Shown here: one piece after another, positions 10,150 to 38,115 of the stretch
Position numbering within the stretch: the first letter of the stretch is position 1
Layout of the letters: each line of letters starts with the position of its first letter
Notes under the pieces: generated by a model
Database searches by the model: none
Seen by the model: the letters and a program-made list of their open reading frames with translations, nothing else
What the model was told of the DNA's origin: nothing
Program-made: the position numbers and the translations under genes
NCBI GenBank assembly: GCA_023269615.1
Contig: JAHFSY010000003.1
Span: 87,665-151,664, forward strand
Length of the DNA: 64,000 bases
DNA from: Verrucomicrobiota bacterium
Lineage (GTDB): Bacteria; Verrucomicrobiota; Verrucomicrobiia; JABWAM01
Direction of reading: 5' to 3'

Positions 10150-10209
10150 GTAGCCGAACTCGCAAGAGTTTGGCGGCAGGGGATCCGCGTTCTGGCGAAC
10201 GCAGCTACA
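10150..10209. repeat. REP-like palindromic element (TGTAGC...GCGTTCGCCAGAACGCGGATCC family), copy A
   Basis: The arm 'ggatccgcgttctggcgaacgcagctaca' is the reverse complement of the arm seen at 33005 and 34575. Located between the convergent ends of nifS and dxr. Confidence 0.5.
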
Positions 10210-10217
10210 ATCCGTGG

Positions 10218-12952: not shown

Positions 12953-12990
12953 AGGAGAATGAAGAATGAAAAATGAAGAATGAAAAATTA
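12953..12990. repeat. GAATGAA octamer-repeat element (AATGAAGA/AATGAAAA tandem), copy R1
   Basis: 'gagaatgaagaatgaaaaatgaagaatgaaaaatta' lies immediately 5' of the transporter start codon. Confidence 0.6.
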
Positions 12991-15053: not shown

Positions 15054-15905
15054 TTGAAAGGAAAAACCATGAAACTTAAATTCGCCGGCGCCGATTTCAC
15101 CTTCCCGCTTCTGCCCCATGACAGCGCGCTCGACATTGTCGCCCTCCTCGGTGTGCAGGGCGTGGACATTGGTGTATTTGGCGGACGCTCGCATATCCGT
15201 CCAGAAAACATTGTCAAGGACCTCGCCGGCTCGGCTCGGGAGCTTTCCGCGAAGGTGCGTGACCGCGGACTTGAGTTTGCGGACATTTTTTTGATTCCCG
15301 GCGCGTTTGAGGTTCTCGCGCCAAACCACATAGACCCGAAGGAACGCCGCAAATCGCGGGACCTTTTCCTGCGCATACTTGAGTTCACCGCGCGGCTGAA
15401 TGCCCGCCACATGGGCGGCCTGCCGGGCACTCCCTGGAAGGGGGAGTCGGGCGCAACCTCCTTGAAGCGCAGTTCCGAGGAGCTGGCGTGGCGGGTGACG
15501 CGCGCGCAGGAAATGGGCATCACCTTCTCAGTGGAAGCGCACATCGGCTCGATCGTGCCGTCGCCCGAGGAGGCGCTGCGTCTCGTGAAGATGACGCCCG
15601 GGCTTACGCTGACGCTGGACTACACGCACTTCACGCGGGTGGGGATCCCCGATTCGAGAATCGAGCCGCTGGTTGCGCACGCCACGCATTTCCACGTGCG
15701 TGGCGGATGCAAGGGGCGGCTTCAGGCACCATTCAAAACCAACACGATTGATTACGCGCGGGTCCTCAAGGCGATGAAGAAATCAAATTATCCCGGCTAT
15801 CTTGGGCTCGAATATGTCTGGATTGACTGGGAACATTGCAATGAGACGGACAATCTCTGCGAGACGATCCTGTTCCGTGACTTCTTGAAATCCGTAAAAC
15901 TGTGA
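15054..15905 (+). CDS. Sugar phosphate isomerase/epimerase (xylose-isomerase-like TIM barrel)
   Basis: AP-endonuclease-2/xylose-isomerase-like TIM-barrel pattern, about 283 aa, with conserved E/H metal ligands ('SVEAHIG', 'LGLEY'). Confidence 0.65.
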   Translation: MKGKTMKLKFAGADFTFPLLPHDSALDIVALLGVQGVDIGVFGGRSHIRPENIVKDLAGSARELSAKVRDRGLEFADIFLIPGAFEVLAPNHIDPKERRKSRDLFLRILEFTARLNARHMGGLPGTPWKGESGATSLKRSSEELAWRVTRAQEMGITFSVEAHIGSIVPSPEEALRLVKMTPGLTLTLDYTHFTRVGIPDSRIEPLVAHATHFHVRGGCKGRLQAPFKTNTIDYARVLKAMKKSNYPGYLGLEYVWIDWEHCNETDNLCETILFRDFLKSVKL

Positions 15906-17032
15906 AGATCCGCTCCATCACGGCGCATCCGCTGCGCTATCCCGAGCCGCATGACCATGGGGTGATCCGGTACGTGACCCTCGCGCGCGTGGAGGCCGAG
16001 GATGGAACGGTGGGTTGGGGTGAGTGCATTTCGCAGTTTCCTGAATCGTGCCTCGCCACGAAGATCATCATCGAGCAGGGCTATGCCCCGTTGCTCATCG
16101 GACAGGAGGCGCTGGATGTGGAGGCGCGCTGGGAGCAGATGAACAACCGCATCTGGTGGTATGGGCCGCAGGGCATCGCGGCTTTTGCGGTCAGTGCCGT
16201 GGACATGGCTCTTTGGGATTTGAAGGGCGGGCTGCTCAAGTTGCCGGTTTGCAATCTCATCGGCGGAAGGCTCTGCAACCGCGTCTCGGCGATGGCTTCC
16301 ATTCATCTCGACATGGACAATCTTGATTGGACGGTCAACGAGTTCCGCTGGTTCCGGGAGCAGGGTTACAAGATTGTGAAGGGCGGGTGGGGAACGCGTC
16401 CCGAGTCGGTGTTTGGAACGAATCGCAAACGTGATCTCGAGCTTGTCCGACGAATCCGCGGGGTGATTGGTGAGGATCTCGACCTGGTGCTGGACGTGCT
16501 TGGCGGGCGTGTGCGTTGGGACGTCAAGGAGGCCGAAGATCGCCTTCACGAGCTGGAACCGTATCGCCTGCTCTGGATCGAGGAACCATTGCCGCCGCAG
16601 GATTACAAGGCGCATGCATTGCTGCGGAGCCGCACTCGCACGCGGATCGGGACAGGTGAACAGGAATGGAATCTGGATGGATACCGCCGCATGATGGAGG
16701 CGGGCGGCGTGGATGTCGTGCAGATGGATCCGGGCCGTTGCCATGGCATTACGGGTTGCATCAAGGTGATCAAGCTTGTCGAGGCGGCAAACCTCCGGTG
16801 GACCGCGCACACGTGGAGCAGCGCGCTCAACACTGCCGCAAGCGTTCACCTGCTGGCCACCTCGCCCAAACATGGGTGGACGATGGACTTCAAGCCGCAC
16901 GAATCGCCGATGCAGCACGAGCTCGTGAGCGATCCGTGGATTCAGAAGGATGGCTTTATTGAAGTCCGCAACAATCCCGGCCTTGGTGTCACGGTGCGGG
17001 AGGACATTGTGAAGAAATACGAATTTTCCTGA
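15902..17032 (+). CDS. Enolase-superfamily sugar-acid dehydratase (mandelate racemase/muconate lactonizing enzyme family), GTG start
   Basis: MR/MLE N-terminal capping domain plus a barrel with 'KGGWG', 'WIEEP' and 'DVVQMD' metal-ligand blocks. Confidence 0.8.
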   Translation: MKIRSITAHPLRYPEPHDHGVIRYVTLARVEAEDGTVGWGECISQFPESCLATKIIIEQGYAPLLIGQEALDVEARWEQMNNRIWWYGPQGIAAFAVSAVDMALWDLKGGLLKLPVCNLIGGRLCNRVSAMASIHLDMDNLDWTVNEFRWFREQGYKIVKGGWGTRPESVFGTNRKRDLELVRRIRGVIGEDLDLVLDVLGGRVRWDVKEAEDRLHELEPYRLLWIEEPLPPQDYKAHALLRSRTRTRIGTGEQEWNLDGYRRMMEAGGVDVVQMDPGRCHGITGCIKVIKLVEAANLRWTAHTWSSALNTAASVHLLATSPKHGWTMDFKPHESPMQHELVSDPWIQKDGFIEVRNNPGLGVTVREDIVKKYEFS

Positions 17033-17034
17033 AC

Positions 17035-17823
17035 ATGAAACGCTTTCAAGACAAGGTGGTGATCGTAACCGGGGCTGCGAGTGGAATGGGTCGCGCGCTT
17101 GCACTTCTCGTCGTGCGCGAGGGCGGATCGGTCGTGGCCGCGGATCTCAACGCGGACGCCTTGGACAAAATCCCGGCTGAGGCTATGGAAGCCTCGGCAC
17201 GCATACGAACAATCTCCTGCGACTCCAGCGATGCCACCACCGGCAAACTCCTCGCCGACGCCGCGATCTCGAGCTTCGGACGGATTGACGGCTTCGTGCC
17301 GTGCGCGGGCATCATTCGTTTTGTCTCCGTCCGCGAACTGCCACCCAGGCAGTGGGATACGGTGCTCAACCTCAATCTGCGCGGCGTTTTTTTCCAGATC
17401 CAGGCCATCGGTGCGGCGATGATCGCGGGCGGCCACAAGGGTTCGATCGTCGCCATCTCCTCCACCTCGTGCGACGGAGCACGTCCCAACAACGCCGACT
17501 ACGGAGTGAGCAAGGCCGGGATCAATCACATCACGAAAACCTTTGCTTTGGAGTTTGCACCGGCAGGCATCCGTGTCAACGCCGTGAGCCCGGGCGTGAC
17601 CGAAACGGCAATGTGGTCTCAGGTTGATCGTGAGCGCGGTGCATTTCTTGGACTGCCGCCGGGCCAGCTCACGGAAAAGATGGTCTCAGAAATCCCGATG
17701 GGCCGGAGTTGCAAGCCCGAGGAGATCGCCTCGGTCATTGCGTTTCTGCTCACAGAGGAGGCATCCTACGTTACAGGCCAGATCATCACCGTGGATGGTG
17801 GCTTCAAATTGAATCACCCTTGA
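17035..17823 (+). CDS. SDR-family NAD(P)-dependent oxidoreductase (paralog 1)
   Basis: 'VVIVTGAASGMGRA' Rossmann motif, catalytic 'YGVSKAG', and 'PGVTETAM'. Confidence 0.85.
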   Translation: MKRFQDKVVIVTGAASGMGRALALLVVREGGSVVAADLNADALDKIPAEAMEASARIRTISCDSSDATTGKLLADAAISSFGRIDGFVPCAGIIRFVSVRELPPRQWDTVLNLNLRGVFFQIQAIGAAMIAGGHKGSIVAISSTSCDGARPNNADYGVSKAGINHITKTFALEFAPAGIRVNAVSPGVTETAMWSQVDRERGAFLGLPPGQLTEKMVSEIPMGRSCKPEEIASVIAFLLTEEASYVTGQIITVDGGFKLNHP

Positions 17824-19077: not shown

Positions 19078-19560
19078 ATGATACGACGATTTCACCACGC
19101 GGGCTTTACGGTTTCCAATGTGGATGCCGCCGAGCGATTTTTCACAAAAAACTTCGGCATGCGCCGCATCGGCGGTGGCGTGTACGATCTCCCCTACATG
19201 CGGCGGCAGGTGGGTTTCCCGAATGCCATCCTGAAAGTGGCCGTGATGGCGTTTCCCGAGGGAAAATCCTGGTCGCAGGTGGACCGCGTCGAGCTCATCG
19301 AGTACCTGCGCCCGAAGGGGAGGCCTGTCGGCACGGACACCAACCGGCCTGGTGGCGCGCACCTCTGCTTCCTCGTGGACGACCTTCACTCGATATACAA
19401 AAAGCTTCGCAGGCGCGGCGTGCGCTTCAAGTCGTCGCCCAATCACGTGACTTTCGGAATCAACAAGGGAGCGTGGGCTGTCTATTTCAACGGGCCTGGC
19501 GGGATCGCCCTTGAGCTGTTTCAACCACCGCCCAAAACCAAACAAAGGAAAAAATCATGA
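19078..19560 (+). CDS. VOC/glyoxalase-family protein
   Basis: 'MIRRFHHAGFTVSNVDAAERFFTKNFG' is a typical VOC beta-alpha-beta-beta-beta N-terminal module. 160 aa. Confidence 0.55.
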   Translation: MIRRFHHAGFTVSNVDAAERFFTKNFGMRRIGGGVYDLPYMRRQVGFPNAILKVAVMAFPEGKSWSQVDRVELIEYLRPKGRPVGTDTNRPGGAHLCFLVDDLHSIYKKLRRRGVRFKSSPNHVTFGINKGAWAVYFNGPGGIALELFQPPPKTKQRKKS

Positions 19561-20687
19561 GTGCCAAGGTATCCAAAGTCGGAATTCTCAGCCAGGACCA
19601 GATCAACGTTGCAGCCCGGCGTCCGCAATCGCGCAAACGCAAGGCGCGCATCGGGTTCATTGGCGTTGGCTGGTGGGCCACCACCAACCACATGCCGGTG
19701 CTGCTTGCGCGAAAGGACGTGGAACTTGTCAGCGCCTGCGGGCTCGACCCCGCGCTCAACAGGAAGCTCCAGCGCGACTTTGGTTTCCAGCACACGACGG
19801 CCAATTACCATGAGCTGTTGAAGCAGGACCTCGACGGCGTGATTGTCGCGTCGCCACATCGTTTCCATGGGGAACACACGCTCGCCGCGTTGAAGGCCGG
19901 CTGTCACGTGATGGTGGAGAAGCCGATGGCGACCAGCGCGACCGAGGCCCGCGCCATGGTGGCGCTGGCGAAGAAAAAACGCCTGCATCTCATGGTTCCG
20001 TACGGCTGGCATTACCGCCCCATTGGGATCAAGGCCCACGAACTCATGATGAAAAATCCCGTGGGCGAGATCGAGTATGTCCTTTGCCACATGGCGTCCC
20101 CTGTCAAAAATCTGATGTCAGGCAAGTCGTTTGATTTCATGGCGGGCTCCTACGTCGGCGCGAAACTCTCCACGTGGTCTGATCCCCGGGTTTCACACGG
20201 CGGCTATGGGCAGGGTCAGCTCTCGCACGCGCTCGGCCTGATGCTCTGGCTCACGGGTCTTCGCGCAAAGACCGTTTATGCGAACATGAACAACACGAAG
20301 TACTCGAAGGTGGACATGTATGATGCCCTCAGCGTTCGTTTTGACAATGGGGTCGTCGGATCAATCTCGGGCGCAGCGACGCTCCCGATGGGCACGCCGG
20401 GCGTGTTCCAGCTCGACGTCCGCATCTTCGGCAGCAAAGGGGTCCTCATCGTGGACATCGCCCGCGACCACGTCTCGCTGCACACGCACAAGGGACGTCA
20501 CGAGACGGTTCCTCTCAAGCCCGGCGACGGCGCATATCAGTGCGACACTCCGCCGCATCAATTCGTGGAGCTGATCCTCGGCCTGACGAAGGTGAATCCC
20601 TCTCCTGGAGAAGTCGGGATGCGTGCCACGGAAATTTTACACACCGCTTATCGGTCCGTGAAGAGTGGTCGGGTGGAAAAGGTATAA
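19557..20687 (+). CDS. Gfo/Idh/MocA-family NAD(P)-dependent oxidoreductase (sugar dehydrogenase-like)
   Basis: 'IGFIGVGWWA' Rossmann block, 'EKPMATS' catalytic block and a C-terminal alpha/beta domain. Confidence 0.85.
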   Translation: MSAKVSKVGILSQDQINVAARRPQSRKRKARIGFIGVGWWATTNHMPVLLARKDVELVSACGLDPALNRKLQRDFGFQHTTANYHELLKQDLDGVIVASPHRFHGEHTLAALKAGCHVMVEKPMATSATEARAMVALAKKKRLHLMVPYGWHYRPIGIKAHELMMKNPVGEIEYVLCHMASPVKNLMSGKSFDFMAGSYVGAKLSTWSDPRVSHGGYGQGQLSHALGLMLWLTGLRAKTVYANMNNTKYSKVDMYDALSVRFDNGVVGSISGAATLPMGTPGVFQLDVRIFGSKGVLIVDIARDHVSLHTHKGRHETVPLKPGDGAYQCDTPPHQFVELILGLTKVNPSPGEVGMRATEILHTAYRSVKSGRVEKV

Positions 20688-20696
20688 CGGGCAGTC

Positions 20697-21485
20697 ATGA
20701 AACGTTTCGCGAGCAAGGCGGTGATCGTGACCGGGGCCGGAAGCGGCCTCGGTCGCGCCGTCGCGCTTCGCGTGGCCAAGGAAGGAGGCTCCGTCGTGGC
20801 CGCGGACTTGAACGCCGACGCACTGGGAAAACTCGCGGCCGGGGTTTCGGAACCTGGCGTGCGCATTCACACGGTTGCGTGTGATGCCGGTGAGCCCACG
20901 ACGGGACAACGCCTGGCCGATGCTGCAATCAAGGAGTTTGGGAGGATCGATGGCTTCGTTCCGTGCGCGGGCATCATCCGCTTCAAGCCCGTCACAGAAC
21001 TTGATCTTGCCCAATGGGACTCAGTGATGAACCTCAATCTGCGTGGCGCATTTTTTGCCGTGCAGGCAGTTGCCAACACCATGATCGCGCGGGGATGCGT
21101 CGGGTCCATCATCAACATTTCATCGACATCGGGCGACGGACCGCGTCCCGACTGTGCGGATTACGGAATCAGCCGCGCGGGGATCAACCACATGACGCGC
21201 ACCTATGCGTTGAAGCTGGCGCCGAAGGGAATCCGCGTCAATGCGGTGAGTCCCGGCGTGATCGAAACGGCGATGTGGACGCAGGTGGATCGCGAGCGCG
21301 GGGCGATGCTTGGATTGAAGCCCGGGGAATTGATCCGGAAAATGGAGCAGGAAATTCCGATGGGACGCGTGGGAACGGCGGACGAAGTCGCCTCGCTCAT
21401 CGCATTCCTGCTCTCGGAGGAATCATCCTACGTGACGGGCCAGATCATCACGATTGATGGCGGCTACAAACTGAACCATGCGTGA
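20697..21485 (+). CDS. SDR-family NAD(P)-dependent oxidoreductase (paralog 2, collinear with the SDR at 17035)
   Basis: Nearly collinear with the other SDR ('VVAADLNADAL', 'IDGFVPCAGIIRF', 'YGISRAG'). Confidence 0.85.
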   Translation: MKRFASKAVIVTGAGSGLGRAVALRVAKEGGSVVAADLNADALGKLAAGVSEPGVRIHTVACDAGEPTTGQRLADAAIKEFGRIDGFVPCAGIIRFKPVTELDLAQWDSVMNLNLRGAFFAVQAVANTMIARGCVGSIINISSTSGDGPRPDCADYGISRAGINHMTRTYALKLAPKGIRVNAVSPGVIETAMWTQVDRERGAMLGLKPGELIRKMEQEIPMGRVGTADEVASLIAFLLSEESSYVTGQIITIDGGYKLNHA

Positions 21486-21487
21486 GC

Positions 21488-21538
21488 AAATGAAGGCAAA
21501 TGAAGAATGAAAAATGAAGAATGAAAAAATAGAACTGA
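21488..21538. repeat. GAATGAA octamer-repeat element, copy R2
   Basis: 'aaatgaaggcaaatgaagaatgaaaaatgaagaatgaaaaaatag' lies immediately after the SDR stop. Confidence 0.6.
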
Positions 21539-21625
21539 AAGACTCGGCGGAATATTTTTCGTGCTGGATCATCCGTTAGGCGAATGGGATAGCAGAATAA
21601 GCTGGGACATTTTTCATTTATTTTT

Positions 21626-23020
21626 ATGCGCATCGCATACCTGCCATTTTACGTGAATTACTACGAGGGCATCTGCCCGGATTTTCCGCGCGAGAAGACG
21701 GAAGCGGCCCGGCGTTGTGCCGGCGTGCTGGCGAAGCATGGCGAGCTGGTCTGGGATGGAAAGTTGATTTGCGACGTCGCGCAGGCGGAGGCCGCGGGAA
21801 AAGCGCTGGCCGGCCAGCAGCTCGATTGCGTGGTGGTTTTCACGAGCATCGCGGTATTTGGCGGAATTCCGTGGGCTGCGTTGAAGCACATTCAAGCGCC
21901 CATCCTCATCTGGAACGCGCAGGCGATCCCGAGTGTGGGGAAGGGCTACACGATGGTGGAGATCGTGCGCAACACGGGGCAGATCGGGACGCAGGCCCTC
22001 GCCAATACGCTTCTGCGCGAGGGGAGATGGTTCCGCGTGGTGACGGCGTATGAGAAAAGCCCGCGGACCGCGGCGGAACTCAAAAAGTTTTTCGGAGTCA
22101 TCCACGCCGTCTCTGCCGTGAAACGGGCCCGCCTACTCGCCGTGGGCGAATCGTTTCCGATGATGACGGATATTCTCATGGACGAGGCCGACCTTGCGAA
22201 ACACATCGGGGCAAGTGTCACGCATGTTTCAAACGCGGAACTCACCAGCCGTTACGAGTCGGTGCCCGATGGAGCCGTGAAAAAGACCATGCTTGAGATG
22301 AGGAATTCAAACCAGGTGAAGGAGTTGACGGAGGACGAGATTGTGCGCTCGTCGCGCCTTTGCGCGAGCCTCGACTCGCTGGTCGGGGAACATCGTGCCG
22401 ATGCGGGCACGCTCAATTGTCATGTGGGGGTTTGTTTGAGAAATCCAAAAATCGGCGTCACCGCGTGCTACAGCCTGGGTGTACAGAACAGCCAGGGACG
22501 TCCGTTCACCTGCACCGGGGACCTGCCGACGGCGGTGGCGATGCTGTTGCTCAAAAAAATGACGGGCATTGCGATGTACACCGAGGTGCAGGTGATGGAT
22601 GAGAAGCGGCGTGCGATCGTGATTGCGAATTCCGGCGAAGGCGAGGAAGGCATCCGCCGTCCCGGCTCCAAATCGCAGGTGCGCGGCAACACGAATTTCA
22701 AGGGGGTTCATGGGCGCGGCGCTTCGTTCGCGTATGCGTTGAAACCCGGTCCCGCCACGGTCATCAGCTTCACGCCTTCGCCGAAGAGCGCGAAGCCGTT
22801 CCGGCTCATCGTTGCCGAGGGGGAGATCTTGAAGGAGACATTGCCCGATGCCGGCGCGCTGGCCGGATTTTTTCGCTTTGCCCATGCCGACCTTCACACG
22901 GGTTACACGCGCTGGCTCGAGGCGGGTGCCGTGCACCACGCGGGAACCACCACGGGCCACTGGGCGCGTGAGCTTGCCGCGGCTGCGGAATTGCTGAACA
23001 TCGAATGCGTCCAAATCTGA
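21626..23020 (+). CDS. L-arabinose/L-fucose isomerase-family protein
   Basis: 464 aa. The N-terminal domain is arabinose-isomerase-like ('GESFPMM') and the C-terminus resembles the FucI/AraA C-terminal domain. Confidence 0.55.
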   Translation: MRIAYLPFYVNYYEGICPDFPREKTEAARRCAGVLAKHGELVWDGKLICDVAQAEAAGKALAGQQLDCVVVFTSIAVFGGIPWAALKHIQAPILIWNAQAIPSVGKGYTMVEIVRNTGQIGTQALANTLLREGRWFRVVTAYEKSPRTAAELKKFFGVIHAVSAVKRARLLAVGESFPMMTDILMDEADLAKHIGASVTHVSNAELTSRYESVPDGAVKKTMLEMRNSNQVKELTEDEIVRSSRLCASLDSLVGEHRADAGTLNCHVGVCLRNPKIGVTACYSLGVQNSQGRPFTCTGDLPTAVAMLLLKKMTGIAMYTEVQVMDEKRRAIVIANSGEGEEGIRRPGSKSQVRGNTNFKGVHGRGASFAYALKPGPATVISFTPSPKSAKPFRLIVAEGEILKETLPDAGALAGFFRFAHADLHTGYTRWLEAGAVHHAGTTTGHWARELAAAAELLNIECVQI

Positions 23021-23025
23021 TCATG

Positions 23026-24141
23026 AAAAAACAAATCATTCTTCCGCAGGTCGAGTTGAACATGGAAAGCTGCACGGTCGTGCGCTGGCTGGTGAAGGCC
23101 GGCGACGCCGTGAGGGCCGAGCAGCCGATCATGGAAGTTGAAACGCAAAAAGCCGTGGTGGAGGTTCCGTCCTCCGACGCCGGTTTCATCCGCAAACTCT
23201 GCGTGAAGGAAGGAGACTCGATTGGTGAGAAAGCGTTGCTCTGCATCGTCACCGACGCGGCCGACGAGCCGTTTGATTCTGAAGCTCCGCAGGCTGTAGC
23301 CGCGGTCGTTGACCGCGGTGGATCGGAAAGACCGCGGTCAACGACCGCGGCTACAGAGGAAGGCGGCGGAATCAAGGCCGCGCCCGCTGCGCGCAAGCTT
23401 GCAAAAGATCTCGGCGTTGATCTGGGAAGCGTGAAGGGCACCGGCCCGGGCGGAAGAATCACCGTCGAGGATGTGCAGGCATTTGATCCGAAGCTCCGTG
23501 CTTCCGTGTCCTCCGTCGTTGATTTCGTATCCCGGGTTGCAGGGGATTGGAATCCGCTTCCTGCTTCCCGCATCGCCCTCAACGCCCAGATGACAAAATC
23601 GCTTGCGGAGATTCCGCAGATCCACATCGTGCGACAACTGGATGTTGCGGCGATTTCAGTCAAGGCCGAGGGCGTCACCTTCACGCACCGGCTCGTTTGT
23701 GCCGTTGCCGCGGCGCTGGTGCGTCATCCTGCGCTTCGCATGGTCCTTGATCGCGATCGCGTGAAGACGGAACCCGTGAGCGTGGCGGTGGCGATGGACA
23801 CGCCGCGCGGACTGGTGGCGCCCGCGTTGCGGAATGCTGACAAACTTTCCCTGCAGCAGGTTGCCGCGGCGACCAAGGATTTTCGTGCGCGCGCCGAGGC
23901 GGGGACGCTGAAGCGCGACGAACTGGTGAACGCGCCTTTTGCGATCACCAACCTCGGAATGCTGGGGGTGGATTTCTTCAGCGCGTTTGTGTTTCACGGG
24001 CAGACCGCGGTCCTTGCCGTGGGGCGTTCGGTCGGGGGCAAGGCATGGTTCAGCCTTGCCGTGGACCATCGCATTGTGGATGGCGCGGAGGGGGCGAGAT
24101 TCCTGGAGACGCTGCAGCAGCAAATGCAAAATGCAGAATGA
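23026..24141 (+). CDS. 2-oxoacid dehydrogenase E2 (dihydrolipoamide acyltransferase): lipoyl domain, PSBD and catalytic domain
   Basis: Lipoyl domain with lipoyl-Lys in the variant block 'EVETQKAVVEV'. PSBD 'ARKLAKDLGVDLGSVKGTGPGGRIT'. Catalytic 'DHRIVDGAEGARFL'. Confidence 0.8.
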   Translation, partial: KKQIILPQVELNMESCTVVRWLVKAGDAVRAEQPIMEVETQKAVVEVPSSDAGFIRKLCVKEGDSIGEKALLCIVTDAADEPFDSEAPQAVAAVVDRGGSERPRSTTAATEEGGGIKAAPAARKLAKDLGVDLGSVKGTGPGGRITVEDVQAFDPKLRASVSSVVDFVSRVAGDWNPLPASRIALNAQMTKSLAEIPQIHIVRQLDVAAISVKAEGVTFTHRLVCAVAAALVRHPALRMVLDRDRVKTEPVSVAVAMDTPRGLVAPALRNADKLSLQQVAAATKDFRARAEAGTLKRDELVNAPFAITNLGMLGVDFFSAFVFHGQTAVLAVGRSVGGKAWFSLAVDHRIVDGAEGARFLETLQQQMQNAE

Positions 24142-24155
24142 AGAATGCAAAATGA
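24121..24155. repeat. GAATGAA/AATGCAG repeat element, copy R3, at the E2/sucC-like junction
   Basis: 'caaatgcaaaatgcagaatgaagaatgcaaaatgag' encodes the E2 C-terminus 'QMQNAE' and the sucC-like start. Confidence 0.6.
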
Positions 24156-25363
24156 GATTACTTGAACATCAAGCGAAGAAGTTGCTGGCTCAATTTGGCC
24201 TGGCTTTCACGCGGTCGGTGGTCGTGAGCAGTCCCGAAGCCGCTGTTGATGCGGCAAAACAGCTGCAGAATTTTTCATTTTTCACTTTGCATTCTGCATT
24301 TGTTCTCAAGGCGCAGGTGCCTTTTGGTGGCCGGGGGAAGGCGGGTGCGGTTCGTTTTGCTGTGACGCCCGACGATGCGCGACGCGAGGCCGGAGAATTG
24401 CTCGCCATGAATTTGCGCGGGGTCCAGGTCACGAGCGTTTCCGTCGAGGAGAAGCTGGCGTTCACGAGGGAATTTTATGCGGGCGTGGCATGGGACACGC
24501 AGGCGAAACTGCCTGTTGCATTGCTCAGCATCGCCGGTGGTGTGGAGGTTGAGCAATCTTCGCATGAGAACCTGGCGCGACGGGCCTTTGATCCATGGAT
24601 GGGACTTTCCCCTTACATCGGGCGCGAGATGGCGGCGAGTGTCGGGCTGAAGGGAAGGACTCTCTCGGGCATGGGTGCGTTCCTTGAAAAACTCGCGCAG
24701 GCATTTCTTGCCTGTGATGCCGTGACGATGGAAATCAATCCTGTCGTGGAAACGACCGATGGCGTGCTCATCGGGCTCGATGCGCATGTGGAGATCGAGG
24801 ATGACGCCGCGTATCGGCAGAAGGAACGCCTCGCGGCCATTGGTGACATTGCGCCGACGGCGACGGGTCGCGCGCCCACGGCGCTGGAATTGGAATCGCA
24901 GAGGATCGACGCCATGGATCACCGCGGCGTGGCCGGGCGCGTGGTGGAATTTGATGGAGACCTGGCCCTTTTGATCGGCGGAGGTGGCGCGAGCCTGACC
25001 GTGTTCGACGCGGTGAGGCGCCACGGCGGCAAGCCCGCGAATTATTGCGAGGTCGGCGGCAACCCCACGGAAGAAAAGGTGGCGGCGTTGACCGCCCTGC
25101 TGCTTTCAAAAAAGGGCGTCAAAAAAATGGCTGTCATCATGAACGTGGTCAACAACACGCGTGCGGACGTGATGGCCCGGGGGGTTTTGATGGGAATTGA
25201 AAAAGCGGGACGAAAGCCGTCCGAGGCGATTTCCGTGTTTCGCATTCCCGGTTCGTGGGAACAGGAGGCGCGGGATCTCCTGGCCAAGGCGGGTGTCCGG
25301 GCGCTCGGGCGTGAAATCTCACTCGATGAGTCAGCTAGATTGGCGGTGCAACATGTTGCTTGA
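24152..25363 (+). CDS. Succinyl-CoA synthetase beta-subunit-like ATP-grasp ligase (ADP-forming acid-CoA ligase beta)
   Basis: 'MRLLEHQAKKLLAQFGL' N-terminus and 'VLKAQVPFGGRGKAG'. Carries a 12-aa in-frame insertion 'QNFSFFTLHSAF' encoded by an inverted copy of the GAATGAA/AATGCAG repeat. Confidence 0.75.
   Translation: MRLLEHQAKKLLAQFGLAFTRSVVVSSPEAAVDAAKQLQNFSFFTLHSAFVLKAQVPFGGRGKAGAVRFAVTPDDARREAGELLAMNLRGVQVTSVSVEEKLAFTREFYAGVAWDTQAKLPVALLSIAGGVEVEQSSHENLARRAFDPWMGLSPYIGREMAASVGLKGRTLSGMGAFLEKLAQAFLACDAVTMEINPVVETTDGVLIGLDAHVEIEDDAAYRQKERLAAIGDIAPTATGRAPTALELESQRIDAMDHRGVAGRVVEFDGDLALLIGGGGASLTVFDAVRRHGGKPANYCEVGGNPTEEKVAALTALLLSKKGVKKMAVIMNVVNNTRADVMARGVLMGIEKAGRKPSEAISVFRIPGSWEQEARDLLAKAGVRALGREISLDESARLAVQHVA
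24265..24308. repeat. Inverted copy (R3b) of the GAATGAA/AATGCAG repeat lying in-frame inside the sucC-like CDS
   Basis: 'cagaatttttcatttttcactttgcattctgcatttgttctc' is the reverse complement of the R3/R4-type sequence. Confidence 0.55.
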
Positions 25364-26243
25364 TCCAAAAGCGGGAATCCTCGTCCAGGGCATCACGGGC
25401 CGCGAAGCCACCGGAATGGTGGAGGACGCGCTTGCGTACGGAAGCCGGATTGTCGCCGGGGTCACGCCGGGAAAAGGAGGCCAGCAGGTTCACGGTGTGC
25501 CGGTGTTCGACACCGTGGCTGAGGCGGTCGCAAAGCATCAGCCGACGGTGAGCGTGATTTCCGTTCCCGCGCCGGCGGTTCTTGATGCGGCGCTGGAGTC
25601 GTTTGCGCACGGGATCCGGCTGTGCCTCATCATGTCGGAGCGCGTGCCACGACTCGATACGTGCAAGCTGGTGGAGGCCGCGAAACGCGTGGGATGCACG
25701 GTCATCGGGCCCAACACGCTGGGGCTCATCTGTCCGGGCGTTGCGAAGCTGGGCACGATCGGCGGGCGTCTCGACAACGTCAAACAGTCGTTCAAGTCCG
25801 GGAAGGTGGCAGTGCTTTCGCGGAGCGGGGGGATGACGACGGAGATCGCAAGTTTTCTCACAAGCCGCGGCATCGGGCAGAGCATCGCGATTGGCGTGGG
25901 AGGCGACCCGATCATCGGCGCAAATTTCACGGAGCTGATCGAGTTGCTGGAGAATGATTCCTCGACGGACGCCGTGGTGATCTACGGGGAACCGGGCGGG
26001 GCGGCGGAGGAGCAGCTGGCGGAGAGGTTGAAAAAGAAACCGAGTCGCCTGCGCATCAATGCTTTCCTGTCGGGTCGTTTCGTGGATGATCTGGAGGGAG
26101 TGCGCTTCGGCCATGCGGCGGTGATCGTGGAGGGAGGCCGCGGCTCGGTGCGGGGCAAGGCGGCGGCGCTGCGCGAAGCGGGCGTGTTTGTGGCGGATGC
26201 GTTTGATGACATCTTAAAAGGACTGCAGGCAAATGCAGAATGA
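25353..26243 (+). CDS. Succinyl-CoA synthetase alpha-subunit-like (CoA-binding, phospho-His) ligase subunit
   Basis: 'ILVQGITGREA' CoA-binding block, 'CTVIGPNTLGLI' and phospho-His block 'FGHAAVIVEGGRGS'. Confidence 0.75.
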   Translation: MLLDPKAGILVQGITGREATGMVEDALAYGSRIVAGVTPGKGGQQVHGVPVFDTVAEAVAKHQPTVSVISVPAPAVLDAALESFAHGIRLCLIMSERVPRLDTCKLVEAAKRVGCTVIGPNTLGLICPGVAKLGTIGGRLDNVKQSFKSGKVAVLSRSGGMTTEIASFLTSRGIGQSIAIGVGGDPIIGANFTELIELLENDSSTDAVVIYGEPGGAAEEQLAERLKKKPSRLRINAFLSGRFVDDLEGVRFGHAAVIVEGGRGSVRGKAAALREAGVFVADAFDDILKGLQANAE

Positions 26244-26262
26244 AGAATGAAGAATGAAAAAT
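26230..26262. repeat. GAATGAA/AATGCAG repeat, copy R4 (left inverted repeat of the 4HB cassette)
   Basis: 'caaatgcagaatgaagaatgaagaatgaaaaat' encodes the sucD-like C-terminus 'QANAE' and the 4HB start 'MKNEK'. Confidence 0.6.
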
Positions 26263-26612
26263 ATGATCTGGTTCCGAGGACCAAGGCATTCGCATTGCGA
26301 GTGATCAAAATGTATCTGTCTTTGCCAAATACCACGTTGGCCCAGGTTTTGGGAAAACAGGTGTTGCGATCAGGAACATCCGTGGGAGCAAATTATCGGG
26401 AAGCAAACCGTGGCCGATCGAAAGCGGAGTTCATATCCAAGATGGGAGATTGCCTCAAGGAACTCGACGAAACGGATTATTGGCTCGATTTGCTGGTGGA
26501 GTCCGCGCTGGTTTCAAAATCAAAAATGGAGGAATTAATTGACGAAACCCATCAACTTACCGCCATCCTTATCACCATCATCAACAAAGCCAAAAAGAAT
26601 GATGAGCAATAA
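26247..26612 (+). CDS. Four-helix-bundle protein (TIGR02436 / 23S rRNA intervening-sequence protein family)
   Basis: 121 aa. 'VLRSGTSVGANYREANRGRSKAEFISKMGDCLKELDETDYWLDLL' matches the conserved 4HB core. Flanked by inverted GAATGAA repeats. Confidence 0.75.
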   Translation: MKNEKYDLVPRTKAFALRVIKMYLSLPNTTLAQVLGKQVLRSGTSVGANYREANRGRSKAEFISKMGDCLKELDETDYWLDLLVESALVSKSKMEELIDETHQLTAILITIINKAKKNDEQ

Positions 26613-26662
26613 AATGAAGGTCAGCCATTCTTCATTTTTCACTTTTCATTCTTCATTTTCTT
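26612..26662. repeat. GAATGAA repeat, copy R5 (right inverted repeat of the 4HB cassette, opposite orientation)
   Basis: 'ttcttcatttttcacttttcattcttcatttt' is the reverse complement of the forward repeat. Confidence 0.6.
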
Positions 26663-27640
26663 ATGAGCACACGACAACTCAGTATGGCGGAAGCCATCAA
26701 CGAAGCGATCCGTCACGAGATGCGGCGCGATCCCAACATCATCCTGCTCGGGCAGGACATCGGAAACTACGGCGGCACGTTCGGCGTGTACAAGGGGCTG
26801 TTCGATGAGTTCGGCCCCGAGCGCGTGCGCGATGGACCGCTTTGCGAAGCGGCGACGGCCGGATTCGGCGTCGGGCTTGCGATCAGCGGAATGCCGACGA
26901 TCGTGGAGATCGAGTTCATGGATTTCATGACGCTTGCATCCGACGCGATGTGCAACCAGGCGGCGAAGATGCGTTACTTCTTCGGCGGCCAGGTGAAGGT
27001 GCCCATGATCATCCGCACGCCGATCGTGAACCGCCTCGGCCTTGGCGCGCAGCACTCGCAAAGCCTTGAGGCATGGATGATGCACATTCCCGGCTTGCGC
27101 GTCATCATTCCCTCGAACGCAGCTGATGCGAAGGGGCTGTTGCTGACAGCGATCCGCGAAGGAAATCCGACGGTGTTTGTCGAGCATGTACGCTTGTATC
27201 CGTCAAAGTCCCCCGTGGATGATGCCGACACGCCGATTCCGCTCGGCAAGCTGCGCGTTGCGCGCGAGGGAAAGGATGTGACGATTGCGACCTACAGCGG
27301 CATGGTGAAGCCTTCGCTGGATGCGGCGATCAATCTTGCGAACGATGGCATCGAGTGCGAAGTGCTCGACCTGCGCACGCTTGCGCCGCTCGATCGCGAG
27401 GGAATTTGCGCATCCGTGAAAAAAACCGGGCGGCTTGTCGTGGCGCATGAGGCGGTGAAGACCGCGGGGGCGGGGGCGGAGATTGCGCAGACAGCGATGG
27501 AGGGCGCGTTCGATTATCTGCAGGCGCCGATCCTGCGCGTGGCGTCGAAAGACCTGCCGATCCCGACCGGGAAACTGCAGGACCTCGTTTATCCGAACAG
27601 TGCGGATGTGGAGACGGCCGTGAGAAAGGTGATGGAATAA
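26663..27640 (+). CDS. 2-oxoacid (pyruvate/acetoin-type) dehydrogenase E1 component beta subunit
   Basis: Transketolase-like pyrimidine-binding and C-terminal domains ('EIEFMDFM', 'RTPIVNRLGLGAQHSQS'). Confidence 0.85.
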   Translation: MSTRQLSMAEAINEAIRHEMRRDPNIILLGQDIGNYGGTFGVYKGLFDEFGPERVRDGPLCEAATAGFGVGLAISGMPTIVEIEFMDFMTLASDAMCNQAAKMRYFFGGQVKVPMIIRTPIVNRLGLGAQHSQSLEAWMMHIPGLRVIIPSNAADAKGLLLTAIREGNPTVFVEHVRLYPSKSPVDDADTPIPLGKLRVAREGKDVTIATYSGMVKPSLDAAINLANDGIECEVLDLRTLAPLDREGICASVKKTGRLVVAHEAVKTAGAGAEIAQTAMEGAFDYLQAPILRVASKDLPIPTGKLQDLVYPNSADVETAVRKVME

Positions 27641-27658
27641 TTTGTTGAAAGGAAAATC

Positions 27659-28621
27659 ATGAAACACCAACCCGACATGAAAACGCTGCTCCACTGGCAT
27701 GAGCAGATGTGGACCATCCGTTATTTCGAGGACAACGCCATCAGCAGTTTCCGCAAGGGGCACTTCACCGGAAGCACTCATCCGTGCATTGGCCAGGAGG
27801 CGATCGCCGTCGGAGCCGGCGCGGCTTTGAAGCCGACCGACCAGGTGCTTGCAACTTATCGCGGTCATGGTCATGCGCTTGCGCGAGGGCTGGATCCCAA
27901 GCGCCTCATGGCCGAGCTTCTTTGCAAGGAGACCGGTTGCAGCGGGGGGCGTGGAGGATCGATGCACCTGTGTGACGTGAGCAAGGATTTCTGGGGGACG
28001 AATGCCGTGGTGGCCGCGCACATTCCCATCGCGGGCGGCGTGGCGCTTTCCAACAAGCTGAAGAAAAACGGACGCGTGACAGCCGTCTTCTTTGGCGACG
28101 GCGCCACGTGCGAAGGGGCGTTCTTTGAGACGCTGAACATGGCGACGCTCTGGAAGGTGCCGCTGGTGTTTGTATGCGAGAACAACGGGTTTGCGATTTC
28201 CGTGCCGACGCACATGGCGATCCCGATCGAAAACATCGCACAGCGCGCGCAGGGATTTGGCCTGCCCGGGGTGACGGTGGATGGAAATGATCCTCGTCAC
28301 GTTCACGAAGCCGTGAGCGCCGCCGCGGAACATGCGCGTCGAGGCGGTGGGCCGACGCTGGTGGAATGCAAGACCACGCGATGGGAGCGGCACAGCGCGA
28401 TCTCGGCGGGCAAGTACGAAAACGAGGATGAGGCGATGAAGTGGAAGAAGGTGGATCCCATTCCCCGCTTTGAAAAATTCCTGAAGGATCATGGCGTCAA
28501 GGCCGCGAAGCTCGATGAACAGCGCGAGCGCGCAAAAAAGCTGAACGACGAGGCGTTGGAGTTTGCGATGAAGAGCGACCACCCCAAGACGGAAACAGCC
28601 GGCGATTTTGTGTTTGCATGA
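27659..28621 (+). CDS. 2-oxoacid (pyruvate/acetoin-type) dehydrogenase E1 component alpha subunit (TPP-binding)
   Basis: TPP motif 'VFFGDGATCEGAFFETLNMA...VCENNGFA' and 'YRGHGHA'. Confidence 0.85.
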   Translation: MKHQPDMKTLLHWHEQMWTIRYFEDNAISSFRKGHFTGSTHPCIGQEAIAVGAGAALKPTDQVLATYRGHGHALARGLDPKRLMAELLCKETGCSGGRGGSMHLCDVSKDFWGTNAVVAAHIPIAGGVALSNKLKKNGRVTAVFFGDGATCEGAFFETLNMATLWKVPLVFVCENNGFAISVPTHMAIPIENIAQRAQGFGLPGVTVDGNDPRHVHEAVSAAAEHARRGGGPTLVECKTTRWERHSAISAGKYENEDEAMKWKKVDPIPRFEKFLKDHGVKAAKLDEQRERAKKLNDEALEFAMKSDHPKTETAGDFVFA

Positions 28622-29460
28622 AAACCATCCGGTTCGACCAGATTCGCGACGCGATCGCCGGGTTGTGCCAACGGGCCAACTTCGAGCTGACTGCGGACAT
28701 GCGGGCCGCGCTGCAGGCGGGTGTCGAGCGGGAAACAAGCCCGTTGGCGCAAAATACGTTGAAGAGGATCCTGCAGAACGCCGACATCGCGAAGGAGCGT
28801 TCCCTGCCCATGTGCCAGGACACGGGGCTCGTCATCGTGTTTGTCGACGTGGGGCAGGACGTTCATATCGAGGGGGGCACGCTGCGCGACGCGATCAACG
28901 AGGGGGTGCGCCACGGATACAAGGAAGGTTTTCTACGCGCGTCGGTGACGGGCGACCCGATCCAGCGCAAGAACACGGGAGACAACACGCCCGCCGTACT
29001 CCACACGGAAATTGTTCCGGGGGATGCATTGCGTCTCCAACTTCTTGCAAAGGGCGGAGGCTGTGAAAACATGAGCCGCTTCAAGATGCTGACGCCGGCT
29101 GACGGGCGCGATGGAATCGTAAATTTCGTTGTTGAAACCGCAAAGCTTGCCGGCCCGAACGCGTGTCCGCCGATTGTGGTGGGCGTAGGCATCGGTGGAT
29201 CGTTCGAGTATTCCGCTGTGCTGGCGAAGAAATCATTGCTGCGCAAGATCGGCGAACGCAGCGCGCTCCAGCACGTGGCGGAACTGGAGGCGGACATTTT
29301 GAAAAAGGTGAATGAAAGCGGGATTGGGCCGCAGGGTTACGGCGGAAAGACCACCTCATTGGCCGTGCAGATCGAGGTGGCGGCGTGCCACGTGGCGAGC
29401 CTGCCGGTGAGCGTCAACATCGAGTGTCATGCGCATCGTCACCAGGAAGTGACGCTGTAA
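28618..29460 (+). CDS. Fe-S hydro-lyase alpha subunit (class I fumarate hydratase / L(+)-tartrate dehydratase TtdA family)
   Basis: 'MCQDTGLVIVF', 'NACPPIVVGVGIGG' and 'IGPQGYGG' blocks shared with TtdA/FumA N-terminal domains. Confidence 0.85.
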   Translation: MKTIRFDQIRDAIAGLCQRANFELTADMRAALQAGVERETSPLAQNTLKRILQNADIAKERSLPMCQDTGLVIVFVDVGQDVHIEGGTLRDAINEGVRHGYKEGFLRASVTGDPIQRKNTGDNTPAVLHTEIVPGDALRLQLLAKGGGCENMSRFKMLTPADGRDGIVNFVVETAKLAGPNACPPIVVGVGIGGSFEYSAVLAKKSLLRKIGERSALQHVAELEADILKKVNESGIGPQGYGGKTTSLAVQIEVAACHVASLPVSVNIECHAHRHQEVTL

Positions 29461-29495
29461 ATGAAGAATGAAGAATGCAAAATGAAGAAAACGGA
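29461..29495. repeat. GAATGAA/AATGCAG repeat, copy R6, at the hydro-lyase alpha/beta junction
   Basis: 'atgaagaatgaagaatgcaaaatgaagaaaacg'. Confidence 0.55.
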
Positions 29496-30045
29496 AATTA
29501 ATTTGCCGCTGGCGGTTGATGTCGCGAAGGCGTTACGGATAGGCGATGAGGTTGAGTTAAACGGGTATGTTTATACCGGGCGGGACCAGGCTTGCGCGCG
29601 GATGTTTGAAATGCTCCAGGGCGGCGAAAAACTACCGATCGAACTGGAGGGGCAGTTGATTTATTTTGTCGGGCCGTCGCCTGCGAAGCCGGGGGAAGTG
29701 GTTGGATCTGCCGGGCCGACCACGAGCGGGCGCATGAATCCGTTCCTGCCGAAATTTCTGGGCCTCGGGCTGCGCGGATTCATCGGCAAGGGATATCTCT
29801 CGCAGGAGGTGAAGGACGCGCTGGTGAAACATGGCGGCGTTTATTTTGGCGCGATTGGAGGCACGGGCGCGCTGCTGTCTGAATGCATTGAATCGGTCGA
29901 GGTGATCGCATTCCCCGAGCTGCTCAGCGAGGCAATCCATCGGATGAAATTCAAAAGGTTTCCCGCCGTGGTGTTGAATGACGCCAGCGGCGGAGATCTG
30001 TATGCACAGGCGATGAAGTCGGAACAAACAACAGAAAATCCATGA
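29482..30045 (+). CDS. Fe-S hydro-lyase beta subunit (class I fumarate hydratase C-terminal / TtdB family)
   Basis: 'GPTTSGRMNPF' and 'GKGYLSQEV' match TtdB/FumA C-terminal domain blocks. Confidence 0.8.
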   Translation: MKKTEINLPLAVDVAKALRIGDEVELNGYVYTGRDQACARMFEMLQGGEKLPIELEGQLIYFVGPSPAKPGEVVGSAGPTTSGRMNPFLPKFLGLGLRGFIGKGYLSQEVKDALVKHGGVYFGAIGGTGALLSECIESVEVIAFPELLSEAIHRMKFKRFPAVVLNDASGGDLYAQAMKSEQTTENP

Positions 30046-32956: not shown

Positions 32957-33004
32957 GGAGGGGCAATGATAGGGGGGATTGACCGTGGATTCCACAGATT
33001 TTCA

Positions 33005-33075
33005 TGTAGCCGCGTTCGCCAGAACGCGGATCCCTGGGCAAAAGCAGAAACCACGCTCTGGCGAGCGTGGCTACA
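33005..33075. repeat. REP-like palindromic element (TGTAGCCGCGTTCGCCAGAACGCGGATCC arms), copy B
   Basis: The two arms are reverse complements of each other, separated by a 17-nt spacer. Located upstream of fumC. Confidence 0.55.
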
Positions 33076-34569: not shown

Positions 34570-34574
34570 GTGAT

Positions 34575-34637
34575 TGTAGCCGCGTTCGCAAGAACGCGGA
34601 TCCGGAGGGGAACCACGCTCTGGCGAGCGCGGCTACA
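34575..34637. repeat. REP-like palindromic element, copy C
   Basis: 'tgtagccgcgttcgcaagaacgcggatcc...ccacgctctggcgagcgcggctaca', immediately downstream of the fumC stop. Confidence 0.55.
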
Positions 34638-34701
34638 TGACTGAATGCCGGATTGCGGTTGTTTTTGGCGGCTGATTTGGTTTAGCTAAAATTCTGTTTT
34701 T

Positions 34702-37907: not shown

Positions 37908-37914
37908 GAAAGAG

Positions 37915-38096
37915 GGGACAGGTGACAGGAGACAGGAGACAGGAGTCAGAATTCGGAATCCAGATGCGAGGTGTCATTGAAGTTGGACATGCTTTGATTT
38001 CAGAAGCTGGGTTTCGTAACAGCGCATCTTCATTTGACGGTTCGGAATTCATGCCACGTCACCCTTCTGTCGCCTGTCACCTGTCACCTGTCACCT
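37915..38096. repeat. Inverted-repeat element built from tandem 7-mers (GACAGGN x3.5), CCTGTCA family
   Basis: Left arm 'gacaggtgacaggagacaggagacagg' at 37915..37945. Right arm 'cctgtcacctgtcacctgtcacctgg' at 38065..38096, the reverse complement with 2 mismatches. Confidence 0.55.
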
Positions 38097-38115
38097 GGGC
38101 ACCAGGGTCCGCCCG

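Follow-up and report, generated by a model that had tools for sequence, protein, structure and literature searches.

How two short and mutually complementary repeats came to bracket the start of a gene for a conserved enzyme, with one of them translated as part of the protein, and whether they sit there as a dedicated pair, are the questions raised by a locus in a 64,000-nucleotide stretch of DNA, hereafter the window, from a Verrucomicrobiota bacterium (assembly GCA_023269615.1, contig JAHFSY010000003.1, positions 87,665 to 151,664). At this locus a gene for an E2 acyltransferase is followed by one for a SucC-like ATP-grasp subunit, and a repeat search over 24050-24380 recovered two inverted arms, 24121-24153 (+) and 24270-24302 (-), which are 33 nt each, 85% complementary and 116 nt apart; both were resolved by Tandem Repeats Finder as period-7 arrays of 4.6-4.7 copies each. 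The explanation that we favour, and which is probably correct, is that the two arms are separate copies of a lineage repeat, one of which remodelled the junction between the E2 and SucC-like genes while the other came to lie in frame in a tolerant loop, and that the pairing between them is incidental. The inverted repeat had been noticed in an earlier reading of the same DNA (the original prediction), and its placement there was accurate: the E2 stop codon, TGA (24139-24141), lies inside the + arm, the SucC-like ATG (24152) stands at the 3' end of that arm, and the - arm is translated in frame within the SucC-like gene as residues 39-50, QNFSFFTLHSAF, which form an extra surface loop. What separates the arms, 116 nt, is native sequence, namely codons 1-38 of the SucC-like gene, for which array-free relatives have orthologous counterparts. 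The original prediction held in addition that the E2 and SucD-like genes end in the same nucleotide string; a common string does exist, the 19-mer AAATGCAGAATGAAGAATG at 24129 and 26231, although the 20-mer that had been quoted occurs only at 26230, and the wider proposal that the repeat is reused at gene junctions is supported, both gene ends being array-encoded. An extra ATG at 24131, inside the 5' arm and in frame with 24152, could give rise to a 7-residue N-terminal extension, MQNEECK.

The repeat origin of the translated segment is established by comparison with the best 120 homologs of the SucC-like protein (64-100% identity), 116 of which have a loop of only four residues (e.g. G-GPV, GGPC) linking the helix that ends in ...KL to the strand VLKAQVPFGGRGKAG, while the long-loop relatives carry a clean or decayed array at the site. 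The 12 repeat-encoded residues are thus present as had been proposed, but the net gain is 8, as the orthologs already have 4 residues here, and not the approximately 5 once supposed. A 12-residue insert at the same codons is found in P0003, from a Verrucomicrobia metagenome-assembled genome (MAG; contig L002), where it is encoded by a clean array, CTTCATC x4.6, and in P0017 (contig L028), where a GC-enriched, decayed array still contains TCTTCATCC; P0023, from a Lentisphaerae MAG, has only a shorter, intermediate loop, PSSAW. Across the 120 orthologs and the array-free loci of relatives, the 12-residue segment was not found in genomes lacking the repeat family, and neither the insert nor the heptamer family was present in the 13-kb loci of relatives from other phyla (L001, L003-L026). 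The structural modelling called for by the original prediction was carried out on the protein with its insert: the AlphaFold2 model (46 aligned sequences; mean predicted local distance difference test score, pLDDT, 88.3) comprises a helix at 28-41, a coil at 42-49 and a strand at 50-54, the insert being a lower-confidence coil (residues 41-50 average pLDDT 67). A structure search with this model returned beta subunits of succinyl-CoA synthetase (SCS) over the full length as its best PDB matches (top 3UFX_B, template modelling score 0.72), and sequence searches agree with an SCS-beta-like fold and domains, so that the fold is predicted to be preserved despite the 12-residue insert. The protein reached 240.9 bits against NF001913 (cut-off 370) and 225.2 bits against TIGR01016 (cut-off 375.6); as these scores are far below the curated SucC cut-offs, it is best regarded as a SucC-like paralog (an acyl-CoA-synthetase beta subunit) and not as SucC itself. 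The strand directly after the insert presumably carries the conserved ATP-binding lysine, by homology with ATP-grasp and SCS-beta structures. Because the insert directly precedes that strand, an effect on activity is possible.

Whether an array can persist in a coding sequence appears to be largely a matter of its orientation. Since seven is not a multiple of three, every frame of a pure (AATGAAG)n array includes a TGA, whereas all frames of the complementary (CTTCATT)n are free of stops; among 87 arrays, 66 were stop-free in all three frames when read antisense, against 21 when read in the sense direction. An antisense array can therefore persist in a coding loop, and the arrays within the SucC-like loops of both the window and L002 are antisense. 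Genes that enter a sense array end there, as do the E2 gene (...QMQNAE*), the SucD-like gene (...QANAE*) and, in contig L154, a gene of a family discussed below (the IVP gene, ...QMQNAE*). A scan of arrays against genes showed that arrays in real coding sequence are rare, being confined to the SucC-like loops and to E2 linkers. In the second E2 linker, sense arrays are translated at the same site in L002 (3639-3677, RMQNAESRMKDEE) and in L027 (7374-7405, ARMKDEGGGMKGEG), while the second linker of the window E2 has unrelated sequence at this site. Neither of these sense arrays retains the TGA phase: L002 has TGA>TCA, and in L027 a unit is broken. The rule for in-frame fixation that emerges is that the array should be antisense, and hence free of stops, have a length divisible by three and sit in a loop or linker.

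The two arms are members of a family of 28-50 nt arrays, each made up of 4-7 tandem units of the heptamer RAATGMA. The window holds seven copies within 12.9-29.5 kb, namely the two arms that bracket the SucC-like start and five more arrays (Table 1), and the core motif AATGCAGAATG, with at most one mismatch, occurs there 18 times as against 1.7 +/- 1.3 times in shuffles, none of 100 of which reached 18. Each arm can be aligned to the other five arrays of the window as well as to copies from L002 and L027. An exact-pattern scan (3.5 units) detected the heptamer family in at least 120 metagenome contigs, and the nearest named relatives of the window are Verrucomicrobia MAGs. In contigs with GC above 0.53, 28 of the 37 adjacent pairs among the matches listed are ordered "+ then -" (purine arm first), and the pair in the window follows this order. 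The adjacent pairs in these GC-rich contigs form compact hairpins, the arms being 28-50 nt long, the loops between 0 and 45 nt and the folding energies between -30 and -83 kcal/mol; many of these hairpins abut the 3' ends of tandem or convergent genes. The 5' arm, at the E2/SucC-like junction, occupies a site of the usual kind, while a location 38 codons into a coding sequence, as for the 3' arm, is rare for the family. The family is common in GC-rich contigs of Verrucomicrobiota type and normally sits at gene boundaries, as hairpins or as pairs that enclose a small gene, often the IVP gene. The heptamer pattern is also common in AT-rich giant-virus contigs and, taken raw, is not lineage-specific; the giant-virus occurrences are probably ordinary microsatellite. 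Contigs with a viral label in IMG/VR and a GC of about 0.6 (L217, L190/L197, L214 and L195) have 6-14 arrays each, most of them sense and located where co-directional genes have their 3' ends. Two or three 40-nt modules recur after the arrays of L217, four pairs in L195 are ordered "- then +", and L190 has five sense arrays within one 1019-codon open frame.

The closest relative of the window is contig L027, at 83% identity for the isomerase, 74% for E2 and 88% for the SucD-like protein, compared with 72, 65 and 84% for L002. In L027 the loop is of the ancestral form, LGGPCVLK, the E2 and SucC-like genes, like the SucC-like and SucD-like genes, meet in an overlapping ATGA, and a comparison of its operon with that of the window showed no arrays at the junction or in the loop; L002 has the internal loop array and no junction partner. 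The favoured explanation proposes that the E2 and SucC-like genes were ancestrally joined by such an overlapping ATGA stop/start, that a sense copy of the repeat replaced this junction, where it now supplies the E2 stop and abuts the SucC-like start, and that an antisense copy entered in frame between helix 1 and the ATP-binding strand (VLK) of the ATP-grasp domain, turning a four-residue loop into one of 12 residues. Survival of the latter in the SucC-like gene can be attributed to its stop-free antisense orientation together with a length that is a multiple of three and a coil site tolerant of change. On a polycistronic mRNA the two copies could form a ~34-bp stem with the SucC-like AUG hidden inside it, in which case initiation would depend on ribosomes that terminate on E2 within the 5' arm and melt the stem, amounting to an enforced translational coupling, and the long AU-rich duplex may also be a substrate for RNase III; these steps are drawn from the general mechanisms of translational coupling and of RNase III. 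Such pairing may be physically relevant, and it is most likely a side effect of the 116-nt spacing between two members of the family and not a selected device; there is as yet no sign that the repeat or its pairing was selected for a function.

Among the genes enclosed by arrays is that of the four-helix-bundle / 23S rRNA intervening sequence (IVS) protein, IVP. IVP genes are very abundant and scattered through operons, including CRISPR-cas and bacteriophage exclusion (BREX) loci, and have, to our knowledge, no known function. Where L027 has a 128-nt spacer between its SucD-like and E1-beta genes, the window has an IVP gene and the two arrays around it (26224-26660), an insertion relative to L027; the IVP start and the SucD-like stop both lie inside the left array of this cassette. 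Five IVP loci were chosen by protein homology alone (those of the window, L150, L154, L158, which stands for the L155 locus, and L160), and strong period-7 structure, defined as at least 21 of 28 matches at lag 7, was present in nine of their ten flanks, as compared with 1.85% of random 120-nt windows. At each of these loci arrays bound the IVP gene. The units differ among the loci (AATGMAG, AAGGCAG, GGCTGAA, GGTTCAC and CTAATGW), and the flanking arrays are usually inverted, L160 having direct 35-nt copies of the GGCTGAA type (L160 1960-2480). More widely, IVP homologs in L150, L154, L155/L158, L160, L037, L061 and L078 are almost always flanked by heptamer arrays with locus-specific units. 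In L160 the gene downstream of the IVP gene is PglX-like (BREX), with an arrangement that mirrors the SucC-like architecture. A match between the IVP pentamer and about five heptamers was considered and dropped, since the arms at different loci have anywhere from 4 to 9 units. One paper describes IVP genes as interspersed in cas operons, and the literature searched held no description of the repeats that flank IVP or GxxExxY genes. The latter concerns a second enclosed gene of the window, a GxxExxY gene (TIGR04256, 58472-59099) lying within inverted arms of ~100 nt (complementary at 98% over 62 nt and at 95% over a further 39 nt), which consist of 9-mer arrays (ACAGGATTT) with a terminator-like hairpin and fill the whole space between two genes. 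A further inverted pair, built on the same plan from a different heptamer (AGGAGAC/GGTGACA) but empty, occupies 37913-37949 and 38067-38097; it fills the intergenic space 37907-38116, reaching from where gene 36672-37907 ends to where gene 38116-39384 starts, has a 118-nt interior free of open reading frames (ORFs), and has a predicted fold of -93 kcal/mol.

The favoured explanation has to be weighed against several alternatives, and a number of observations speak against it. The carriers of the loop insert are not monophyletic in a neighbour-joining tree without bootstrap, and yet the boundaries and length of the insert are the same in the window, L002 and L028, so that two simple independent insertions are not an easy explanation; further, nucleotide identity to L027 falls to 0.58-0.67 only in 24139-24307, as against ~0.75-0.88 around it, which suggests that the bracketed segment may have a history of its own; and in L160 a GGCTGAA array precedes the PglX-like ATG, with an inverted copy in frame in the first ~30 codons and a predicted stem that encloses the start codon, a recurrence with a different heptamer which hints that the arrangement may be favoured and not accidental. 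That the inverted repeat or the insert is merely an assembly artefact, through a chimeric join or a collapsed repeat, is a notion that short AT-rich repeats in a 59% GC genome, which can cause mis-joins, and the metagenomic source of the assembly do invite. However, it is close to negligible, as the reading frame is intact, the flanking residues align without gaps to orthologs, the relative L002 carries an array at the same codons, and a second, separate assembly, the ENA contig L029 (4711 nt), encodes the same SucC-like protein, agrees with window 21639-26349 at 99.68% and shows no difference in either arm; of its 15 differences, 14 fall within 200 nt of the contig end where it begins and the other is synonymous, in the SucD-like gene, and the contig therefore represents the same population, assembled independently. 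A more substantive alternative is that arrays are recombination sites and that the SucC-like 5' end was imported, together with the loop insert, from an L002-like lineage. This would account for an insert with identical boundaries in the window and L002 and none in the closer L027, for the confinement of the identity dip, and for the protein comparison, in which SucC-like residues 1-38 are identical to L002 at 28 of 38 positions (74%) and to L027 at 22 of 38 (58%), while the rest of the protein is 84% (L002) and 85% (L027) identical and all other operon genes are closer to L027; in L160, the IVP gene between direct 35-nt array copies is likewise as expected for a circle that integrates by recombination at an array. 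However, the counts are small, with a quartet support of 6 vs 2 in the N-terminus and a similar 8 vs 3 in the rest, the family is in any case at its most variable in the N-terminal region, and the heptamer phases of the window and L002 arrays are offset by 3 nt, so that these arrays are not simply orthologous. Import is thus distinctly improbable, and it can be said, on a suggestive basis only, that the sequences would fit an exchange of the 5' segment by recombination or a homogenisation among arrays. A single origin of the loop insert was set aside, given that its carriers are ungrouped in the bootstrap-free tree, and either repeated gain or allele exchange may account for the insert.

It may also be asked whether the two arms form a selected RNA device, in which a stem of ~34 bp hides the SucC-like AUG, such that the SucC-like and SucD-like proteins are made only when E2 is translated, or in which cleavage by RNase III sets the stoichiometry or stability of the two halves of the operon, the in-frame arm being kept for the sake of pairing. 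RNAfold does pair 24116-24153 with 24270-24311 over ~34 bp with four single mismatches, in both the minimum free energy and the centroid structures and with the SucC-like AUG enclosed; the E2 stop inside the 5' arm provides the geometry needed for coupling; the order of array, ATG, short codon stretch and in-frame inverted array recurs with a different unit at the PglX-like gene of L160; and the IVP and GxxExxY cassettes and the 37913-38097 pair, as predicted, make long array stems a regular feature of transcripts here. However, the z-score of the fold is only -2.06, which is modest, and the layout is not conserved, since L027 is free of arrays at both junction and loop and L002 possesses only the internal one and folds a local junction hairpin instead, by which a hairpin conserved in relatives was ruled out. 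The arms pair with one another at -35.8 kcal/mol, within the -23 to -39 kcal/mol of other +/- combinations, and the internal arm pairs as well or better with a non-neighbour (26232+ with 24270-, -38.9 kcal/mol) and is 91% identical to the right arm of the IVP cassette. These energies, with the lack of a junction partner in L002, leave the notion that the arms are a dedicated pair unsupported, and pair-specific co-evolution of the arms was discarded on the same energies. By inspection the arm mismatches (2 G.U, 2 A.C and 1 C.U) have no bias towards RNA pairing, and the 41 G.U, 26 A.C and 64 other mismatches of the family hairpins come from an ungapped arm alignment that is too crude to decide on a G.U bias. 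The window produced no Rfam 15 match at the gathering score and only chance-level matches in 21400-29600. Taken as a whole, the selected device seems unlikely. A role as terminator or promoter was rejected, there being no signal of either for the arm pair: the terminator scan did not flag it and found 15 sites as against 10.2 +/- 3.6 in shuffles, which is no enrichment, and the arms are AU-rich and ~33 nt long, where an intrinsic terminator has a short GC-rich stem and a U tract. A broader proposal would regard the arrays as boundary and recombination sites of an undescribed class of mini-cassette, in Verrucomicrobiota and related bacteria, with IVP and GxxExxY genes passing from one operon to another by recombination at arrays; on this view the SucC-internal array would be the 3' edge of an exchanged N-terminal segment, and the stems over the start codons of the SucC-like and L160 PglX-like genes a recurrent, selected coupling. 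As a period of seven is not a multiple of three, a sense array would offer ATGA overlaps in all frames and its insertion would not be polar. We hold this proposal to be unlikely. A defined flanking signature would make IVP mobility, and its effect on operon expression, testable. The reading of the arms as two separate family copies whose pairing is incidental is therefore retained.

The surroundings of the arms are summarized in Table 1. The window has 59% GC and contains a co-directional catabolic gene cluster, according to Pfam, NCBIfam and gene calls on L029. A GFO/IDH/MocA-type gene and a short-chain dehydrogenase/reductase (SDR) gene are apparently duplicated in tandem as a pair, at 15902-17823 and 19557-21485, ~3.66 kb apart; a repeat finder gave 75-80% nucleotide identity over the aligned stretches, and the Pfam annotation is for the downstream pair only. 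The first linker of E2 (23294-23356) contains a perfect palindrome with 26-bp arms that belongs to a second, REP-like family (TGTAGCCGCG...CGCGGCTACA) and is translated in frame as AVAAVVDRGGSERPRSTTAAT. At the same E2 codons L027 preserves the palindrome, and L002 has one whose inner stem differs; the REP-like family has intergenic copies at 10180-10212, 33002-33075 and 34572-34640, and one copy makes up the C-terminal extension of the L002 SucC-like gene.

Table 1. Repeat copies and genes around the SucC-like start, in window coordinates.
Feature	Position	Strand	Remarks
5' arm	24121-24153	+	sense heptamer array CAAATGC AAAATGC AGAATGA AGAATGC AAAAT; contains E2 stop, ends at SucC-like ATG
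3' arm	24270-24302	-	antisense heptamer array within SucC-like coding sequence, 85% complementary to 5' arm
Codons 39-50 of SucC-like gene	24266-24301	+	repeat-encoded 12-residue loop QNFSFFTLHSAF; replaces ancestral 4-residue loop (GGPC/GGPV type)
E2 acyltransferase	23023-24141	+	lipoyl, E3-binding and 2-oxoacid dehydrogenase acyltransferase domains; array-encoded end QMQNAE*
SucC-like ATP-grasp subunit	24152-25363	+	403 aa; below NCBIfam SucC cut-offs
SucD-like alpha subunit	25353-26243	+	array-encoded end LQANAE*
IVP gene (four-helix-bundle / 23S rRNA-IVS protein)	26247-26612	+	PF05635, TIGR02436; between SucD-like and E1-beta genes
Family copy	12956-12988	+	directly upstream of start of minus-strand gene 11557-12951
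Family copy	21498-21528	+	just past SDR stop codon; weak inverted partner at 21609-21640
Family copy, sense	26232-26262	+	supplies SucD-like stop and IVP start; left edge of IVP cassette
Family copy, antisense	26626-26659	-	right edge of IVP cassette; directly upstream of E1-beta ATG (26663); 91% identical to SucC-internal arm
Family copy	29460-29489	+	between fumarate-hydratase-like alpha and beta subunit genes
Cytochrome P450	17709-19067		gene of catabolic cluster
GFO/IDH/MocA oxidoreductase	19557-20687		gene of catabolic cluster
SDR	20697-21485		gene of catabolic cluster
Sugar-isomerase-like gene	21626-23020		gene of catabolic cluster
E1 beta	26663-27640		gene of catabolic cluster
E1 alpha	27659-28621		gene of catabolic cluster
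Fumarate-hydratase-like enzyme, two subunits	28618-29460 and 29461-30045		alpha and beta genes

Several known systems bear comparison with the present repeats. Bacterial inverted repeats that are transcribed include the Correia/NEMIS elements of Neisseria, which are cut by RNase III, and the REP/BIME and ERIC elements of enterobacteria. As in those, the repeats here are inverted and would be co-transcribed, with long stems able to alter mRNA processing, stability and downstream translation; however, the known elements are unitary and intergenic with both arms together, whereas here the arms lie 116 nt apart around native codons and the stem is a predicted one. Assignment to REP/BIME was excluded in particular, as a single arm is a direct tandem array and not a palindrome, and one arm is intragenic. 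A miniature inverted-repeat transposable element (MITE) was likewise excluded, in that the inverted repeats bound native SucC-like codons 1-38 and not a short non-coding element; the compact hairpins displayed have no evident flanking direct repeat, and no transposase is found among the annotated ORFs around arrays. The IVP cassette recalls the intervening sequences of 23S rRNA that carry an IVP ORF (PF05635), as given in a family description quoted in PMC3936711. Like these, the cassette at 26224-26660 is an IVP gene within inverted repeats able to form a long stem, but it lies in a catabolic operon and its arms are heptamer arrays, and the SucC-like pair encloses no IVP gene. The link between arrays and IVP genes may matter more than the SucC-like locus alone, and is worth following.

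The closest parallels for the in-frame arm and for the heptamer arrays are to be sought elsewhere. Rickettsia palindromic elements (RPEs), reportedly described by Ogata et al. in 2000, are similar in being a genome-dispersed family with some copies in frame in conserved genes, where they add a surface segment with the fold kept. RPEs are also discussed in PMC1779305 and in a review of MITEs (PMC10969869). The present locus shares with them a dispersed repeat that stands in frame in a conserved ORF whose homologs lack it; however, an RPE is a palindrome of ~100-150 bp without tandem structure, and its hosts are AT-rich alphaproteobacteria with an obligate intracellular life, whereas the arrays described here are tandem heptamers of ~33 nt in a verrucomicrobial genome of 59% GC, with one arm of a pair coding. 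The short tandemly repeated repetitive (STRR) heptamers of cyanobacteria, said to have been described by Mazel et al. in 1990 and Vioque in 1997, resemble the present family as heptanucleotide tandem arrays at many loci that are mostly intergenic and occasionally inside a functional gene (that of RNase P RNA). They differ in their units, CCCCAGT and others in heterocystous cyanobacteria as against RAATGMA here, and in phylum; we know of no STRRs with an inverted-pair habit, an association with IVP genes or an in-frame coding copy. The literature searched held nothing relevant on heptanucleotide repeats in Verrucomicrobia or on STRR heptamers. The locus thus belongs to a known kind of event, combining the in-frame repeat insertion of the Rickettsia RPEs with the heptamer arrays of the cyanobacterial STRRs in a variant that appears to be undescribed, and it shows that in-frame fixation beside the nucleotide-binding strand of a conserved ATP-grasp enzyme is open to microsatellite-like repeats as well as to classical palindromic elements.

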